A DNA stretch of 64,000 bases from Myxococcota bacterium (lineage in GTDB: Bacteria; Myxococcota_A; UBA9042; PHBI01; JAWLBL01): the NCBI GenBank assembly GCA_041687695.1, contig JAWLBL010000002.1, forward strand, positions 102,761-166,760, given 5' to 3'. Positions 3,986-32,384 of the stretch are shown here, piece after piece. The notes beneath the pieces were generated by a model. It was not told the origin of the DNA, did not search any database, and saw nothing but the letters and a program-made list of their open reading frames with translations. How positions within the stretch are numbered: the first letter of the stretch is position 1; every line of letters starts with the position of its first letter. Position numbers and translations under genes: made by a program.

Positions 3986-4504
3986 CGTGTTCACGGGCCT
4001 CCTGCAGACGTCAGGAGGCCCCGTGAACGTGTTCACGAGGGCTCCTGCAGACGTCAGGAACGGTCGTGAACGCGTTCACGGGGCTTCTGCAGACGTCAGG
4101 AACGGTGGTGAACGTGTTCACGGGGCTTCTGCAGACGTCAGGAACGGTCGTGAACGCGTTCACGGGGCTTGTGCAGACGTCAGGAGGCCATGACATCGCG
4201 GTGCGACGGCTTCTGCAGACGTCAGGAGGCCATGACACCGCGATGCGACGGCTTCTGCAGACGTCAGGAGGCCATGACATCTCGATGCGACGGCTTCTGC
4301 AGGCGTCAGGAGGCCATGACATCGCGATGCGACGGCTTCTGCAGACCTCCGGAGGCCATGACATCTCGATGCGACGGCTTCTGCAGGCGTCAGGAGGCCA
4401 TGACATCGCGATGCGACGGCTTCTGCAGACGTCAGGAGGCCATGACACCCCGGTGCGACGCGTCCTGGCGCCGTCAGGAGGCCACGACATTGCGGTGCGA
4501 CGGC
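3986..4504. repeat. 42-bp tandem array of alternating palindromic modules between convergent genes
   Basis: Core CTGCAGACGTCAGGA (with variants) at 4002, 4045, 4087, 4129, 4171, 4213, 4255, 4297, 4339, 4381, 4423 and 4465. The linker switches from CGTGAACGYGTTCACG to GCCATGACATCGCGATGCGACG. Confidence 0.95.
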
Positions 4505-4534
4505 GTACGGGTCTGGGCAGGCGAGCGGGGCGCG

Positions 4535-6076
4535 CTACAGCTGGGCCAGGGCGCGGACCAGGCGGTCGATGGCGCCGCGCAGGGCCGGCTGGCGGGCGGG
4601 GGTGGCCTTGTTGATCATGACCGAGAAGGCCAGCAGATCGCCGGTGCGGGTGGGGATGTAGCCCGACAGGCTGATGACGTCGTCCAGGGTGCCGGACTTG
4701 GCCTTGACCTTGCCGCCGGTGAGGGCGCCGGACAGGCGCTGCGACAGCGTGCCGGAGCGGCCGGCGACGGCGAGGGTGTCGATGAAGGTCGGGCCCAGGT
4801 CGGCGCTGCGGGCCATCAGCACCAGCAGGCGGGCCATGGAGCGGGGCGAGACGAAGGTGGCCTGGTACAGGCCCGAGCCGTTGACGACGCGGAAGCCCTT
4901 GGGGTCGAGGCCCAGGTCGACCAGGGCTTTGGTCACGACGTCCTTGGCGCGGTCGAAGGAGGCGGGCTCGCCGGCGGGGCCGCGGCCGAGGTGCTTGAAG
5001 ATCATCTCGGCCATGAAGTTGTTCGACCAGACGTTGACGTCGGTCAGGGCGGCGACCAGGGGCTCGGACTCGACGCGGGCCAGCTCGGGCAGGGCCTGGG
5101 GGCAGCTGTCGCCCTTGCGGATGGGCAGCTCGGTGGCGACGACGCCGGCGCGGGCGAGGTGGCCGCGCAAGAGGTGGGCCGTGAAGACGTCCGGGTGCGC
5201 GACGCGGCGGCGGCGCGAGAAGGTGGCGCGGGGGCCGATGCGGCCGCTGATGGTGAGGCGCGTGCGGCCGTCGGGCAGGGCGCTGGTGGCGACCGAGAGG
5301 CCGGAGATGCCCTTGCCGGCGGTGGTGGCGCGGTTGTCGACGTCGAAGTAGTCGCTGGCCGGGTCGATGGAGACCGAGGGGCGGTCGCCAGCGCGGCGGC
5401 CGCCGGTCACGGTGACGCGGGCGGCGCCGAAGTTGACGGCGACGGCGCCGATGGCGGCGCGGTAGCCCTCGTCGGTCGACTTCTGGTCGTAGGCGGGCGG
5501 CAGGTGCTGGGCGTCGAAGCGGCTGGCGTCGACCACCAGGTCGCCCTTGACCTCCTTGACGCCGGCGGCCACCAGCGCGTCGGCCAGCGCGCGCACGTGC
5601 TCGGGCATCAGCTTGGGATCGCCCTCGCCGACCAGGTACAGGTCGCCCTCGACCACGCCGCCGGGCCCGACCTCGCCGTGCAGCCGCGTCGCGAACCGGG
5701 TCGTCGGCGGCATCAGCCGCAGCGCCGCCGCCGTCGTCAGCAGCTTCGTGCCGCTGGCCGGGTTCATCAGGTCGTCGGCGTGGTGGCCGCCCAGGAACGC
5801 CTCTCCGCGCGGATCGACCTTGGCGACCGCGACCCCGACCTTCACGCCCTCGAGCTGCGCGCTCTTCACCCACGCGTCGACCAGCCGCTGCGCGGCCGGG
5901 ACGTCCTCGGCGCTGGCGCCAGCGACCTGCGGGATGTGCGGCCCGGCCGCGGCGCCATCGGTGCGCGACACGCCGGCCGCGAGCACGAAGGCGAACAGCG
6001 TGACGAGCAGCGGCGAGCGCAGGGTGACGGTGGGCAGGAAGCGGTGAGGGGAGGGGGAGGGGGAGGGGGAGGACAA
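4535..6076 (-). CDS. dacB: D-alanyl-D-alanine carboxypeptidase/endopeptidase (PBP4, peptidase S13); exact start uncertain
   Basis: SxxK (PASGTK), SNN, NGSGL and KSGT motifs; signal-peptide-like N-terminus. Confidence 0.9.
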   Translation of the reverse strand: MSSPSPSPSPHRFLPTVTLRSPLLVTLFAFVLAAGVSRTDGAAAGPHIPQVAGASAEDVPAAQRLVDAWVKSAQLEGVKVGVAVAKVDPRGEAFLGGHHADDLMNPASGTKLLTTAAALRLMPPTTRFATRLHGEVGPGGVVEGDLYLVGEGDPKLMPEHVRALADALVAAGVKEVKGDLVVDASRFDAQHLPPAYDQKSTDEGYRAAIGAVAVNFGAARVTVTGGRRAGDRPSVSIDPASDYFDVDNRATTAGKGISGLSVATSALPDGRTRLTISGRIGPRATFSRRRRVAHPDVFTAHLLRGHLARAGVVATELPIRKGDSCPQALPELARVESEPLVAALTDVNVWSNNFMAEMIFKHLGRGPAGEPASFDRAKDVVTKALVDLGLDPKGFRVVNGSGLYQATFVSPRSMARLLVLMARSADLGPTFIDTLAVAGRSGTLSQRLSGALTGGKVKAKSGTLDDVISLSGYIPTRTGDLLAFSVMINKATPARQPALRGAIDRLVRALAQL

Positions 6077-6263
6077 GGGAGGCTCCGGGCGGCGAGGGGG
6101 ACGCGGGGGCGCGGGGGGCGCGGGGGTGACGCCGTGAGGCGCGCGGTCCGGTCAGGGGAAGGATCGGCTGGGGCGGGGGTGTGGGCAAGGATTGGGACGG
6201 GGGGTGGGGTGGGGGGGGGAGGGGTTGGGGGCGGGGAGGGCGGTTGGAGCGCTGGTTCGTTGC

Positions 6264-6590
6264 GTTCGCGCCGAAGGCGCTGTGGAGCGCGCCGGCCGCG
6301 CCGGCGCTGTGGGTTGGAGGAGGTTTTCGGAGGGGGAGGGGGAGGGGGAGGTGCGGGTAGCCTCCGCTTCGGCCGGCATCAAGGGCTTTCTCCCCCTTGG
6401 CCGGCCGGGCGGCCGGCCAATTCCTCGCGGACGAGAAAGCCCTTGACCCCGGCCTCCGCTGCGGCTGGGGGGCCAATATCGGCCCGGACGCGGGGCGTCC
6501 GGGCCGCTGCGCGTCCCGAGACGCGGACGGGGTCGCGGAGTCCGGGAGTGGGAGGGGATGCTGCAGGTGACGTGATAGTCTGGGGTTATA
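6264..6590. ncRNA. Candidate structured non-coding element (RNA or ssDNA hairpins) upstream of HNH copy 1
   Basis: 14-bp stem TCAAGGGCTTTCTC (6379-6392) / GAGAAAGCCCTTGA (6433-6446) encloses the hairpin TTGGCCGGCC-gggc-GGCCGGCCAA. Conserved in copy 2 with a compensatory change. Transcription is not shown. Confidence 0.45.
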
Positions 6591-6613
6591 TCAGGTGCGC
6601 GGGACGGGCAGGT

Positions 6614-6984
6614 GGGTCGTCGTCCCGGGGCGGAAGCGAGCGGGTCGTCGTCCCGGGGCGGAAGTCCCAGGGCGGGTCGTCGTCCCGGGGCGGAAGTCCC
6701 AGGGCGGGTCGTCGTCCCGGGGCGGAAGCGAGCGGGTCGTCGTCCCGGGGCGGGAGCGGGCGGGTCGTCGTCCCGGGGCGGAAGCGAGCGGGTCGTCGTC
6801 CCGGGGCGGAAGCGAGCGGGTCGTCGTCCCGGGGCGGAAGCGAGCGGGTCGCCGTCCCGGGGCGGAAGCGCGCAGGTCGTCGTCCCAGGGCGGAAGCGGA
6901 CGGGTGGTCGTCCCGGGGCGGAAGCGGGCGGGTCGTCGTCCCGGGGCGGAAGTCCCAGGGCGGGTCGTCGTCCCGGGGCGGAAG
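6614..6984 (+). repeat. Tandem array of 13 units, 23-bp core GGGTCGTCGTCCCGGGGCGGAAG plus 5- or 9-bp linkers
   Basis: Units start at 6614, 6642, 6674, 6706, 6734, 6762, 6790, 6818, 6846, 6874, 6902, 6930 and 6962 (28 or 32-bp period). Confidence 0.95.
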
Positions 6985-7250
6985 GCTGGGTGGGCAGTGG
7001 GAGAGAAATCGACATCGGGAGGGGGCCGAGGAGCAAATAATTGTTGACGGATTTCGGGGGCAGAGTTGGGCCGATCGGGGGTCGCTGTTGGGCGGGGGCT
7101 GGGAGGGCCCTGGGAGGCTCTACAGCGCGCTGATCAGGGGCAAGGGTCGTCGCGCGTCGTCTGGAGGGCCTGAACGGCCGTCCAGGGGCTGCTACGAGGG
7201 GACGGGACCCCCCGTGTTATGCTGCAGGCCTCGATTGGGAGGGCTGCGGG

Positions 7251-8504
7251 ATGAGCAAGGGCTTGGAAACGCTGGCGAAGTGGACCGACGAAGGGCTGCT
7301 GGGGCGGGTCGGTGAGCTGGTCGAACTGGAGCGACGGACGACCGCCAACCTGGTGGTGCTGCTGGCCGAGGTCGAGGCGAGGGAGCTGCATCTGCTGGAC
7401 GGAAGCCCGTCGCTGTTCGAGTGGTGCCGGACGCGGTGGGGCTTTGGGGAGGACAAGGCCTACAACTACGTGAAGGCCGTCGGCTGGGTGCGGCGGTGGC
7501 CGCAGATGGGGGCGATGCTGGCCGATGGACGGCTCAGCCTGAGCGGGATGAGGGTCATCGGGCCGCATCTGGACGAAGGGAACGTCGACGAGCGGCTGGT
7601 GGAGGCGGCGGGAAAGAGCAAGCGTGAGCTGGCCGAGCTCGTGGCGAGGTGGTCGCCGCGGCCGGATGTGCCGGCGCGGGTGTTCAAGCTGCCGCCGTCC
7701 CGGGGCGGAGAGGTCGGGGCGCCCAAGCAGGCGAAGGCCGAGCCGGAGGCGGGGGCGAACGAGCTGTCGCTGGAGCGGCCGAAGGTGGAGCACCGGGTCG
7801 AGCCGCTCTCGGAGGCTCGGTATCGGGTGCAAGTGACCGTGGGGGCCAGGGTCGCCGCCAAGCTGGAAGAGGCGATGGCCATCGCCGGACATCAGGTCGC
7901 GTCGGGGGACTACGAGACGCTGCTGGAGCTGGCGCTGGACGTCTTCCTGGCCGCGAAGAAGAAGCAGCGGTTCGGGGTGGGGGCGCGGCCCAAGGCGAGG
8001 AAGGCCAAGAAGGCCAAGCAGGCGGCCGAGCGGGTCGCCATGGCCGGAGCGTCGGTCGATCGGTCGGCGCAGGCCGACGAGCGGGTCGCGACGGTTGGAG
8101 CGTCGGTCGAGGGAGGGGTGCAGGCGGACGATGGGGTCGCCACGGCCGGAGCGTCGGTCGACTCGTTGTCGGAGGAGCCGTCGGGGGAGCCGGTCGGGCG
8201 GGGACGGGCCGTGCCGATCGGGGTCCGGCGGGAAGTGGTCGCGCGGGATGGGCTGCGGTGCACCTTCGAGGGGCCGGGGGGGCGGTGCACCGAGACGAGG
8301 CGGCTGGAGCTGCATCACGACGAGGCGTTCGCGAAAGGCGGGGCGCACTCGGTCGAGAACGTCCGGGTCGTGTGTCAGGCGCACAACCTGCTCATCGCGC
8401 GGCGGGAGCTGGGGGCGGGGTCCGTGGCGCGGAAGATGGGGACGGCGGCGTCGTCCCGGGGCGGGACCGCGGGCGCTCAGGGGCAGTTGCGGGCGCGGCG
8501 GTAG
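7251..8504 (+). CDS. HNH endonuclease with helical (DUF222-like) N-terminal domain
   Basis: C-terminal RDGLRC...RC...LELHH...GG.HSVENVRVVCQAHN zinc-binding HNH signature. RBS GGAGGG upstream. 17-aa linker repeats. Confidence 0.88.
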   Translation: MSKGLETLAKWTDEGLLGRVGELVELERRTTANLVVLLAEVEARELHLLDGSPSLFEWCRTRWGFGEDKAYNYVKAVGWVRRWPQMGAMLADGRLSLSGMRVIGPHLDEGNVDERLVEAAGKSKRELAELVARWSPRPDVPARVFKLPPSRGGEVGAPKQAKAEPEAGANELSLERPKVEHRVEPLSEARYRVQVTVGARVAAKLEEAMAIAGHQVASGDYETLLELALDVFLAAKKKQRFGVGARPKARKAKKAKQAAERVAMAGASVDRSAQADERVATVGASVEGGVQADDGVATAGASVDSLSEEPSGEPVGRGRAVPIGVRREVVARDGLRCTFEGPGGRCTETRRLELHHDEAFAKGGAHSVENVRVVCQAHNLLIARRELGAGSVARKMGTAASSRGGTAGAQGQLRARR

Positions 8505-29774: not shown

Positions 29775-30823
29775 TCAACGCCAGGGTCGCGACGACGGGC
29801 CCCCAGCCCGGCCCTCACCGCCCCGGGGCGGAGCGCCCCCCGCCCAACGCGCCCCCATCTTCCGCGCCACGAACCCACGCCCCAGCTCGTCCCGCGCCAG
29901 AAACTGGTTGTGCGCCTGACAGACGACCCGGACGTTGCCGACCGAGTGCACGCCGCCCTTCGCAAAGGCCTCGACGTGATGCAGCTCCAGCCGCCGCGTC
30001 TCGGTACACCGCCCGCCCGGCCCGACGAAGGTGCACCGCAGCCCATCCCGAGCGATCACCGCCCGCCTGACCTCGACTGGAATGGCCCGCCCTCGTCCAG
30101 CCGGACCCGTGTCCGGCTCATCGGCCGGGCCATCTCGGTCCGCCAGGGCCACGCTCTCGGCCGTTTCCTCGACCGACTCTCCGGCCGCGGCGCCCCGCTC
30201 GTCCGCCTCCCGGGTCGCGCCTTCGACCGACGCTCCGGCCATGGTGCCCCGCTCGTCCGCTTCCCGCGTGGACTTCTTCGCCTTCCTCGCCTTCGGCCTG
30301 GCCCCCACCCCGAACCGCTGCTTCTTCTTCGCGGCCAAAAAGACGTCCAGCGCCATCTCAAGCAGGGTCTCGTAGTCCCCCGACGCGACCTGATGCCCGG
30401 CGATCGCCATCGCCTCCTCCAGCTTGGCGGCGACCCGAGCACCGACGGTCACTTGCACCCGATACCGAGCCTCCGAGAGCGGCTCGACCCGGTGCTCCAC
30501 CTTCGGCCGCTCCAGCCTCAGCTCGTTCGGCCCCGCCTTGTCCTCAGCCGTGACCTGCTTCGCTGCCTTGGCTGCTCCGCCCCGGGACGGCGGCAGCTTG
30601 AACACCCGCGCCGGCACATCCGGCCGCGGCGACCACCGAGCCACCAGCTCGGCCAGCTCCCGCTTGCTCTTCCCGGCGGCCTCGGCCAGCCGCTCGCCGA
30701 CGTTCCGCTCGTCCAGATGCGGCCCGATGACCCTCATCCCGCTCAAGCTCAGCCGCCCGTCGGCCAGCATCGCCCCCATCTGCGGCCACCGCCGCACCCA
30801 CCCAACGGCTTTCACATAGTTGT
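29775..30823 (-). pseudogene. 5'-truncated second copy of the HNH endonuclease (lacks about the first 70 codons)
   Basis: Aligns with 7251-8504 from NYVKAVGWVRRW onward; HNH motif intact; fused directly to the motif array with no RBS. Confidence 0.8.
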
Positions 30824-30826
30824 TCT

Positions 30827-31113
30827 ACCGCCCCGGGACGGCAACCCGCCCTGGGACCTCCGCCCCGGGACCGCGTCCCGCCTCTGGGATTTCCGCCCCG
30901 GAACGACGACGCGCCCCCGAGGGAGTTCCGTCCCGGGACAACGGCCTTGGGAGTCCCGTCCCGGGACGACGCCCGCTCGTCCTGTCGCCCCGGAACTCCG
31001 ACCAGCGCTCCCGCCCCAGCGCTCCCGTCCCGGGACGACGCCCGCTCGTCCTGTCGCCCCGGAACTCCGACCAGCGCTCCCGCCCCAGCGCTCCCGCCCC
31101 GGGACGACGACCC
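30827..31113 (-). repeat. Degenerate array of the CGYCCCGGGRCG motif (about 9-11 copies, includes a 69-bp duplication)
   Basis: CCGCCCCGGGAC/CCGTCCCGGGAC-like motifs at ~30828, 30860, 30893, 30928, 30956, 31025 and 31094; the block at 30954 repeats at 31023. Confidence 0.85.
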
Positions 31114-31137: not shown

Positions 31138-31395
31138 ATAACCCCAGACTATCACGCCCCACCTGCCGCACCCCCTCCCACGCCAGCAGCCCAGCGACCC
31201 AGTCCGCGTCGCGGGCCGCGCCGCGGCCCGGACGCCCCCACGGGGGCTGCGCCCCCGCGCCCCGCTATGAAGGCCACCCAGCCGCAGCGAAGGCCGGGGT
31301 CAAGGGCTTTGTCGTCCGCGAGGAATTGGCCGGCCGCCAGGTCGGCCAAGGGGGACAAAGCCCTTGATGCCGGCCGTAGCGGAGGCTACCCGCGC
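31138..31395. ncRNA. Candidate structured non-coding element, copy 2
   Basis: Stem TCAAGGGCTTTGTC (31300-31313) / GACAAAGCCCTTGA (31354-31367); 19-bp box at 31138-31156 is the exact reverse complement of 6571-6589. Confidence 0.45.
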
Positions 31396-32113
31396 CTCGT
31401 CCCATCTCTCGCGGTCGATAGCGCCGACGTGGCCGGCGCGCTCCACAGCGCCTTGGGCGCGAACGACACCCATGTCCGCCACCCGTCCCCCGCTATCCGC
31501 AGCTCCTCTCATCTCTCGCGCTCGATAGCGCCGGCGTGGCCGGCGCGCTCCACAGCGCCTTGGGCGCGAACGACACCCATGTCCGCCACCCGTCCCCCGC
31601 TACCCGCACCTCGTCCCATCTCTCGCGCTCGATAGCGCCGGCGTGGCCGGCGCGCTCCACAGCGCCTTGGGCGCGAACGACACCCATGTCCGCCACCCGT
31701 CCCCCGCTATCCGCAGCTCCTCTCATCTCTCGCGCTCGATAGCGCCGGCGTGGCCGGCGCGCTCCACAGCGCCTTGGGCGCGAACGACACCCATGTCCGC
31801 CACCCGTCCCCCGCTACCCGCACCTCGTCCCATCTCTCGCGCTCGATAGCGCCGGCGTGGCCGGCGCGCTCCACAGCGCCTTGGGCGCGAACGACACCCA
31901 TGTCCGCCACCCGTCCCCCGCTATCCGCAGCTCCTCTCATCTCTCGCGGTCGATAGCGCCGGCGTGGCCGGCGCGCTCCACAGCGCCTTCGGCGCGAACG
32001 ACACCCATGTCCGCCAACCGTCTCCCGCTACCCGCAGCTGGTCCCATCTCTCGCGGTCGATAGCGCCGGCGTGGCCGGCGCGCTCCACAGCGCCTTCGGC
32101 GCGAACGACACCC
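31385..32113. repeat. 107-bp tandem repeat, 7 units (last partial), alternating A/B variants
   Basis: Units start at 31385, 31492, 31599, 31706, 31813, 31920 and 32027; CTCCACAGCG recurs every 107 bp. Confidence 0.97.
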
Positions 32114-32384
32114 AACCCATCCAGCCCACCCACCCCCACCCATTCCTGTCCCGCCCACCTCACACCAACCCATCCTATCCCGCCCACCTCACCCCACCTC
32201 ACCCCACCTCACCCCGCCCACCCCAGCCCATCCACCCAGCCCACACCCCACCCACCCCACCCCACTCCCCCCACCCACCCAGACGTGACGCGCCACCCGC
32301 CCGGGGTTATCTTCCTCGCCCACGCGCGGCCTGCCGCTGCGCGCGAGCCGACGCGAGCTGACGCGAGCTGACGAGGAACCCACG

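Follow-up and report, generated by a model that had tools for sequence, protein, structure and literature searches.

The window analysed here, a 64,000-nucleotide stretch of a Myxococcota genome, holds two copies of a branched hairpin module that is portable among mobile elements and most likely acts as structured single-stranded DNA (ssDNA). In this genome the module caps a 22-copy cassette whose gene encodes a protein with HTH, ribbon-helix-helix (RHH) and HNH parts, and elsewhere it is found within unrelated IS elements and plasmid regions. Two aspects of this finding are new: the signature carried by the outward strand, that is, the strand running away from the HNH gene, and the spread of the module across element families.

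Anatomy of the hairpin module in the window

The first-pass annotation of this DNA had described two copies of a nested hairpin that differ by a compensatory base pair, and this description was accurate: C6390:G6435 in copy 1 corresponds to G31311:C31356 in copy 2, and the 14-bp stem is perfect in both. The two copies and their hairpin are real, and the structure is larger than had been proposed, with two further outer stems, an invariant small hairpin, a second hairpin and a mini-hairpin, and with 41 near-full copies in the genome. The parts of the two window copies are as follows.

6357..6466, folding strand minus: hairpin module, copy 1
6357-6360, read on plus: boundary tetranucleotide GTAG of copy 1
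6359-6362/6463-6466: stem P0 of copy 1
6363-6370 and 6455-6462: two facing GNA-GC-GNA 8-mers of copy 1
6371-6376/6449-6454: stem P1 of copy 1
6379-6392/6433-6446: 14-bp stem P2 of copy 1, holding C6390:G6435
6397-6420: inner hairpin P3 of copy 1
6422-6431: small invariant hairpin of copy 1
6481-6505, minus: second hairpin of copy 1
6506-6512, read on minus: GCGNAGC DNA mini-hairpin of copy 1 (with the second hairpin, 6481..6512)
6574..6590, no strand: short A+T-richer inverted site directly ahead of the palindrome array
31280..31389, folding strand plus: hairpin module, copy 2, inverted relative to copy 1
31300-31313 and 31354-31367: arms of the 14-bp stem of copy 2, holding G31311:C31356
31200..31270, no strand: second-hairpin region of copy 2, variant
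31385..32112, no strand: 107-bp tandem array adjoining the outer boundary of copy 2

In total the module measures about 110 nt and is branched, with a three-way junction. The 127-nt segments that contain the two copies are 94% complementary and differ at 8 of 127 positions. These differences comprise the compensatory pair, a G>A change in the inner stem (6404), one position of the inner loop (6407), the free N of two GNA motifs (6369 and 6456) and two positions in the flanks. Folding z-scores ranged from -3.15 to -5.94 for both copies on both strands, as RNA and as DNA; folding energies, in which most sheared G.A pairs go uncounted, do not distinguish the strands. The A+T-richer site is replaced by a different A+T-rich motif in other copies. 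The 107-bp tandem unit beside copy 2 ends at the boundary tetranucleotide and contains a REP-like palindrome common to many other arrays genome-wide. This palindrome (window 6263-6308 and 31385-32112) is also present in an array beside a Y1 gene at contig position C15:152243.

Base pairing among the genomic copies

A search of the genome (7.97 Mb, 73% G+C, 63 contigs) returned 47 matches to the module, 41 of them near full length, and the hairpin is therefore not a chance structure. Among the 41 copies, 563 of 574 cells of the 14-bp stem were Watson-Crick paired, with double changes at 6 of its 14 positions, and the stem next to it was paired in 236 of 240 cells. At the position of C6390:G6435, 32 copies had G:C, eight had C:G and one had C.C. 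Over the named structure as a whole, 97.6% of the cells paired in 25 aligned rows, which were drawn from the 41 copies, two of them duplicating the copy of another row, and both partners had changed in 11 of 37 pairs. None of 500 shuffles reached any of these measures, a figure that is not a probability because the aligned rows are related, and slid controls paired at 26-55%. The stems are kept by paired changes, and the covariation first noticed between two sequences persisted in the larger alignment. The accompanying proposal, that selection acts on base pairing, survived in part: the kept pairing stands, while selection itself does not follow from it, since gene conversion among copies or template-switch correction could generate the same pattern. 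On a tree of the 22 HNH proteins with 19 labelled copies, strongly supported branches force at least three separate changes to the C:G form, which points to recurrence or conversion rather than a single event. The C.C intermediate is present in a sister copy.

The boundary tetranucleotide sits at the foot of the stem and reads GTAG in 36 of the 41 copies, and similarity among copies stops sharply at this point. A 12-nt unpaired segment is invariant in all 41. By location, 28 of the 47 matches lie near an HNH gene, nine face a contig end and ten are elsewhere, these last being mostly gene-less inverted pairs or tandem modules on contigs C3, C7 and C27. Three gene-less inverted module pairs are present. 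At one gene-less inverted pair (G000 C27:85508-86585; L110, L111) the outer stems and GNNA loops are kept and the three-way junction is absent.

Partial duplications of the first 10-60 nt of the module lie just beyond the boundary in six copies (pattern matches in 8 of 41, two of them weak), at G000 C2:186871, C3:293109, C9:2201, C13:394, C13:226166 and C33:12440. Where they are stacked, these duplications look as if copying had stalled in the stem and then restarted; a strict tandem-duplication test was positive at only 3 of 38 boundaries. In 37 of 38 copies the outer 100 nt (for example, window 6180-6356 and 32113-32281) show a G skew on the inward strand, above 0.3 in 58% compared with about 3% of controls, and simple repeats are frequent in these flanks. 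A skew is also seen in the inner spacer, in 33 of 37 copies.

Strand signature of the module

The first-pass annotation had suspected, from one substitution, that the folded strand is the one running away from the HNH gene. As it had noted, the G>A change at 6404 pairs as a G.T wobble on the outward strand only, and the larger set of copies bears out the suspicion. Across the genome, 26 of 28 inner-stem mismatches were G.A or G.T on the outward strand, in nine distinct position-type combinations; the 14-bp stem alone had no wobble bias (4 vs 3). The inner loop read on the outward strand was C-G(N1-3)A-G in 36 of the 41 copies and GNRA in none. At the four GNA sites the G and the A were kept in 35-39 of 37-39 copies and the N varied, and the 8-mers of the terminal internal loop read GNA-GC-GNA. 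The second hairpin was followed by GCGNAGC or GCGNNAGC in 32 of 36 parsed copies, with all four nucleotides occurring at N. In PMC13037366 these two patterns define DNA mini-hairpins, with a Tm of 76.5 C as DNA against 39 C for an RNA octamer; the same paper describes them as nuclease-resistant and poorly bound by SSB, and locates them at the N4 promoter, at RSF1010-type ssiA and where priming occurs in phage G4.

The loop cUNCGg occurred once among the 41 copies, counted in stems of 3 bp or more because the complement of GNA-type loops can mimic UNCG. In 66 distant homologues (described below), interior hairpins that lie outside the search pattern held 70 GNA triloops on the outward strand vs none on the inward strand, and cUNCGg three times; random genome pieces gave 377 vs 406 in the same strand count. 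Eleven inward GNA triloops were seen, in variant second hairpins, and the loop of the invariant small hairpin, GCGA, is compatible with an RNA GNRA loop too. One strand thus carries the sheared-G.A-type loops and the mini-hairpins, and these data support the outward strand as the one that folds.

The Rfam comparison suggested in the first-pass annotation gave no match at gathering score in the window. Matches in 6200-7300 and in nine distant loci were weak and sub-threshold, except for a group II intron domain at one of these loci (L083:2966-3188), which lies about 370 nt outside the distant module. No sigma-70 promoter or terminator pattern was present in 6050-7300. As a candidate outward sigma-70 promoter we considered a TTGA/TTTA word found 16-18 nt ahead of the boundary T in 65 of the 66 homologues, but no fitting -10 hexamer accompanies it, and its spacing is set by stem length. 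With DNA mini-hairpins present and GNRA inner loops in none of the 41 copies, the RNA reading implied by the first-pass annotation is less likely than folded ssDNA.

The HNH cassette

The genes and arrays associated with the two window copies are listed here.

6617..6983, plus: palindrome array of 13 sites, 16-bp and CCCGGG-centred, period about 28 bp
7005..7250, plus: conserved leader of the HNH gene, about 250 nt
7251..8504, plus: HNH gene of copy 1, encoding P0001 (417 aa)
P0001 residues 26-141, HTH (ParB/KorB-like); 190-242, RHH; 316-387, HNH nuclease
30825..31110, minus: degenerate palindrome array of copy 2, six sites, fused straight to codon 72 of the HNH gene
29775..30823, minus: 5'-truncated HNH gene of copy 2, with one palindrome site at 29819

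The full cassette order is boundary tetranucleotide, branched hairpin, second hairpin, mini-hairpin, spacer, A+T-richer site, palindrome array, leader and gene, followed 3' of the gene by a single palindrome or by an inverted array and module. The array sites are candidate binding sites for P0001. The copy 1 cassette has a palindrome site at 8452, in the tail of the P0001 gene, and no right-hand hairpin; in copy 2 the leader and codons 1-71 were lost at a palindrome site. A staphylococcal-nuclease-like gene with an Ada-type zinc domain converges on the P0001 gene and overlaps its tail (8477-8504), and a 42-bp tandem array with a palindromic core lies between two genes at window 3986-4543.

The P0001 gene is present in 22 copies at 50-100% identity, together with one weak partial match, and the HNH motif (His-Asn-His/Asn with zinc cysteines) is intact in all 22. 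The module lies upstream of all 19 copies with enough flank, 480-1310 bp away and in the same orientation. An inverted module lies downstream of seven copies, and 12 of the 19 are without a right-hand module. The 16-bp palindrome has 280 genome matches; 236 are no more than 1.5 kb from a module, and the 11 Y1 matches have none nearby. No common target-site duplication was detected: the longest exact direct repeat was 0-5 bp, with no shared length, in eight two-ended units under 11 boundary choices.

The predicted structure of P0001 had a mean pLDDT of 80.6. Its HTH region resembled the ParB-parS complex (Z 6.7, rmsd 4.7, 101 aligned), its RHH resembled NikR (Z 5.0), and its HNH part resembled EcoKMcrA (Z 7.4, rmsd 2.9, 66 aligned) and the GVE2 HNH (Z 7.3); because the VIA Z-scores are all under 8, these domain labels are of moderate strength. 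Foldseek returned nothing at E<=0.001 and Pfam no family at E<=0.01, and DUF222 appeared as a weak lead, on 21% of one rank-29 Atlas cluster. P0001, the one protein surveyed for this, had no Pfam, NCBIfam or fold match to a DDE transposase, and the cassette has no recognisable transposase or recombinase. The P0001 profile matched at least 17 of 201 genomes of the phylum; metagenome contigs yielded no confirmed relative.

HNH relatives in genomes G223 (nine copies) and G069 (four copies) share a non-coding leader of about 260 nt, and most have a single CCCGGG-centred palindrome ahead of the leader and another near the gene end. No hairpin module was seen in either set. In the five multi-copy HNH genomes the module head was at chance level (0, 0, 0, 1 and 2 against 0, 1, 1, 0 and 0 in controls). 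The bounding palindromes differ between copies in G223 (L049-L057) and G069 (L066), those of one copy tending to match, which suggests duplication of the palindrome or recombination at it; at L066 a longer direct repeat surrounds both. The leader (window 7005-7250; L049-L066) is shared among HNH copies within each examined genome. A TTGAC word stands close to where it begins, and a further conserved block is close to the start codon. The spacing of these blocks is too long for one promoter, and the leader is possibly a structured element of its own.

Module homologues in other bacteria and elements

A scan with a degenerate terminal-stem pattern gave 133 loci, 33 from genomes and 100 from metagenomes. 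Of these, 81 also carry two inner motifs, the further criterion by which they were selected, and comprise 66 different sequences that form 16 groups. The search pattern itself fixes the terminal GNA motifs of this set. A stricter filter (27 of 141 passed) was replaced, as it missed evident members. The 52 loci that failed the motif filter were, where inspected in the first scan, mostly Ala/Glu-rich coding repeats. Records with names belong to Acidobacteriota, Dormiibacterota, Binataceae and Spirochaetales. Features outside the selection confirm the homologue family: a T precedes the pattern in 63 of 66 sequences, a second hairpin of at least 7 bp is present in 57 of 63 compared with 8 of 56 control windows, and the GNA triloops lie on one strand. 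The boundary reads ATAG in 32 of 66 and GTAG in 27 of 66.

We scanned the longest ORFs at 28 of the 81 loci. Twenty of them have a transposase, integrase, plasmid replication, partition or mobilisation, or primase gene, four have only toxin-antitoxin or HTH_17 genes, and four have nothing informative. The identified neighbours at these 28 loci were as follows.

IS genes: ISL3, 6; IS3, 4; IS110, 2 (one shared with IS3); IS21 IstB, 1
Other genes: integrase-core, 1; tyrosine integrase, 1; DnaG-like primase, 2; NikA with TrwB, 1
Plasmid and Y1 genes: ParB, 1; RepA with iterons, 1; Y1, 1

The 5' leader of ISL3 holds the module, about 25-45 nt inward of a conserved word that we take to be the ISL3 left end. 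In IS3 it follows the transposase stop and precedes the right end, in IS21 it comes immediately after istB, and at L089 it is just 3' of RepA and its iterons. Replication or transfer regions hold the module at L089, L069, L083 and L164, and most other loci are inside IS elements. The folding strand is the template strand for 17 of 19 identified neighbour genes. The closest distant relative of the variant in this genome (L183:91-188) retains the invariant small hairpin in part, together with a long A+T stem; its neighbour is an integrase-core gene, not an HNH gene.

The first-pass annotation had linked the hairpin to an HNH gene. This link holds for all 19 assessable HNH copies of the genome studied but is not specific, as an HNH gene of the A1 type was near none of the 81 distant loci in flanks of up to 2-2.5 kb per side, often less. 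Since the module occurs inside ISL3, IS3 and IS21 and beside RepA iterons and mobilisation, integrase and primase genes, it is portable and probably not the cassette's own end. Most members of the ISL3, IS3, IS21 and IS110 families, and the HNH relatives in the five multi-copy genomes, do without the module, which is therefore not required for mobility. Close relatives were scarce: blastn against 40 genomes, none closer than order level, gave one weak 41-nt match, the long pattern matched twice in 400 genomes of the phylum, and eight pattern matches in viral contigs all lacked the module architecture.

Comparison with known systems

Single-strand initiation (ssi) signals, such as the phiX174-type primosome assembly site (PAS), G4-type origins, RSF1010 ssiA/ssiB and Frpo, resemble the module in being strand-specific ssDNA of about 100 nt with GNA or GNNA mini-hairpins. 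They are folded ssDNA found by plasmid origins and transfer regions (PMC13037366, PMC5778457 and PMC11541004). The module has a strand-specific DNA fold with mini-hairpin loops as defined in PMC13037366. It is set apart by its three-way junction, terminal double-GNA internal loop and second hairpin, and by its location inside IS elements and at the ends of HNH cassettes; Frpo has a -10 hexamer, whereas the module has none. With the phiX174 F-G intergenic region the module has no more than short motifs in common, and a PLSDB blastn search for known ssi signals or PAS gave six short, chance-level matches only.

REP, REPIN and BIME sequences served by TnpA-REP (RAYT) share with the module GTAG at the stem foot, inverted doublets, tandem arrays and an ssDNA substrate. 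The module is far longer than REPs, which are 20-50 nt (PMC8266576), and it is branched and not beside Y1 genes; it accompanies HNH cassettes here and DDE-type IS elements elsewhere. It thus has the 5' GTAG of a REP but neither a 20-50-nt palindrome nor a flanking cognate tnpA-REP. Like the cassette, HEARO/OMEGA (IscB) systems place an HNH gene beside a conserved structured non-coding element. The cassette differs from them in having no RuvC match and no Rfam HEARO match, and in a structure that is far shorter and DNA-like; the IscB model scored 20.6 bits on P0001 against a cut-off of 175, over residues 318-379 only. We also liken the cassette to DUF222-HNH/REP13E12 loci, which we take to be multi-copy, free-standing HNH genes with a helical N-terminus and no transposase. 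We know of no hairpin module or arrays in the DUF222-HNH family, and P0001 had no Pfam DUF222 match at E<=0.01.

The module also resembles the ARRPOF, GEBRO, PAGEV and attC-like motifs of Weinberg et al., which covary, occur on mobile DNA and were proposed as ssDNA (PMC5737381). Neither the window nor nine distant loci had an Rfam match, and the PMC5737381 collection may include motifs that are not in Rfam. None of four short words of the module occurs in the PMC2864571 (2010) supplement. The literature covered, with subscription papers on ssi signals and IS anatomy mostly outside its scope, contained no description of the module or the cassette.

Discussion

The module probably folds when its outward strand is single-stranded DNA, and its reader is then probably a host protein and not any one transposase, as a host factor is the simplest reader of a structure that elements with unrelated enzymes have in common. 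That it is folded ssDNA of some function is likewise highly probable. The trait shared by the elements that bear it is an exposed single-strand phase, in plasmid replication or transfer and in circle-forming IS elements. In 10.1101/2023.06.07.543989, IS3, IS21, IS110 and ISL3 are circle-forming and presumably copy-out-paste-in elements that need host replication, and known ssDNA hairpin signals load primosome or RNA polymerase (PMC5778457 and PMC11541004). Since these elements share an exposed ssDNA phase and such hairpin signals are known, we tentatively favour a single-strand initiation (priming) signal, a reading drawn from context that may well be correct. A PriA zinc-ribbon match is present in this genome.

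The same strand evidence would fit folded ssDNA that does not prime, serving as a nuclease shield, in SSB exclusion or as a fork or transcription barrier, or a near-neutral palindrome kept by template-switch correction and gene conversion. Mini-hairpins that resist nucleases and bind SSB poorly (PMC13037366) would suit a shield, the partial duplications outside the boundary in six copies are what hairpin polymerase slippage would give, and the C:G state is scattered across the HNH protein tree. However, neutral correction would not hold unpaired motifs such as the 12-nt segment invariant, nor preserve one architecture across phyla and element families, and we regard this explanation as unlikely. 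We give a low probability to a structured RNA, whether a HEARO/OMEGA guide-like partner of the HNH protein, an antisense RNA, a 5' UTR or a terminator. Covariation alone cannot tell RNA from ssDNA (PMC5737381), the orientation to neighbour genes is constant, one invariant loop is GNRA-compatible and the module is within the 5' leader in ISL3. Against these points stand the weak, sub-threshold Rfam matches, the lack of a sigma-70 promoter or terminator pattern in 6050-7300, loops that are GNA triloops and non-GNRA GNNA with a single cUNCGg in 41 copies, and an IscB score on P0001 that is far below the cut-off and confined to the HNH part.

The module might instead be the cassette's own end or nick site, read by the HNH protein as a terminal inverted repeat or rolling-hairpin origin. 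Its place upstream of every assessable HNH copy and inverted downstream of seven, the three gene-less inverted pairs and the sharp stop of similarity at the tetranucleotide would all agree with such a role, but the G223 and G069 relatives are bounded by single 16-18-bp palindromes with no module, none of the 81 distant modules is near the A1-type HNH family, and in ISL3 and IS3 the module is internal, not terminal. Together with the 12 copies that have no right-hand module and the missing target duplication, this makes an own end rather improbable. It is also improbable, and more so, that the module hitch-hikes with the cassette and IS elements as a REP/REPIN-type substrate for a Y1 (RAYT) transposase. 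In favour are the 36 of 41 copies whose stem foot reads GTAG, the resemblance of inverted doublets and tandem modules to BIMEs, the 11 Y1 matches in the genome and the REP-like array adjoining copy 2. On the other side, the module is about 110 nt long with a three-way junction, beyond the 20-50 nt of REPs (PMC8266576), and the surroundings of the 11 Y1 matches, several of them close to contig ends, have no module motif out to 1.5 kb. Moreover, just 10 of the 47 matches have neither an HNH gene nor a contig end nearby, ATAG is commoner than GTAG in distant homologues (32 vs 27 of 66), and a Y1 gene was found at 1 of 28 scanned distant loci.

If the module is a priming signal, host priming proteins (a PriA-type primosome, DnaG or RNA polymerase) would start second-strand synthesis at it on a displaced strand. 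For the cassette, the HTH and RHH parts of P0001 would bind the palindrome arrays and its HNH part would nick one strand; host replication from the 3'-OH would displace a strand, on which the module would fold and prime the complement, and the copy might re-enter by recombination at palindromes or by repair. The combined proposal, that ISL3, IS3, IS21, IS110, integrative elements and plasmids share an exchangeable, undescribed ssDNA priming module and that an HNH-nickase cassette moves by nicking, displacement and host priming, is speculative, and we hold it to be a possibility on the unlikely side.

If true, it would mean that transposition can proceed with no DDE, HUH or recombinase enzyme. 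Second-strand synthesis of the displaced strand of copy-out-paste-in IS elements is left to unspecified host replication in the available text of 10.1101/2023.06.07.543989, and a module common to several such IS families and to plasmid origins is a concrete cis-acting candidate for where that strand starts. GNA triloops and G.A mismatches on one strand offer covariation screens a rule for telling ssDNA from RNA, and the module offers a handle on the otherwise unexplained spread of a widespread, multi-copy HNH gene family.
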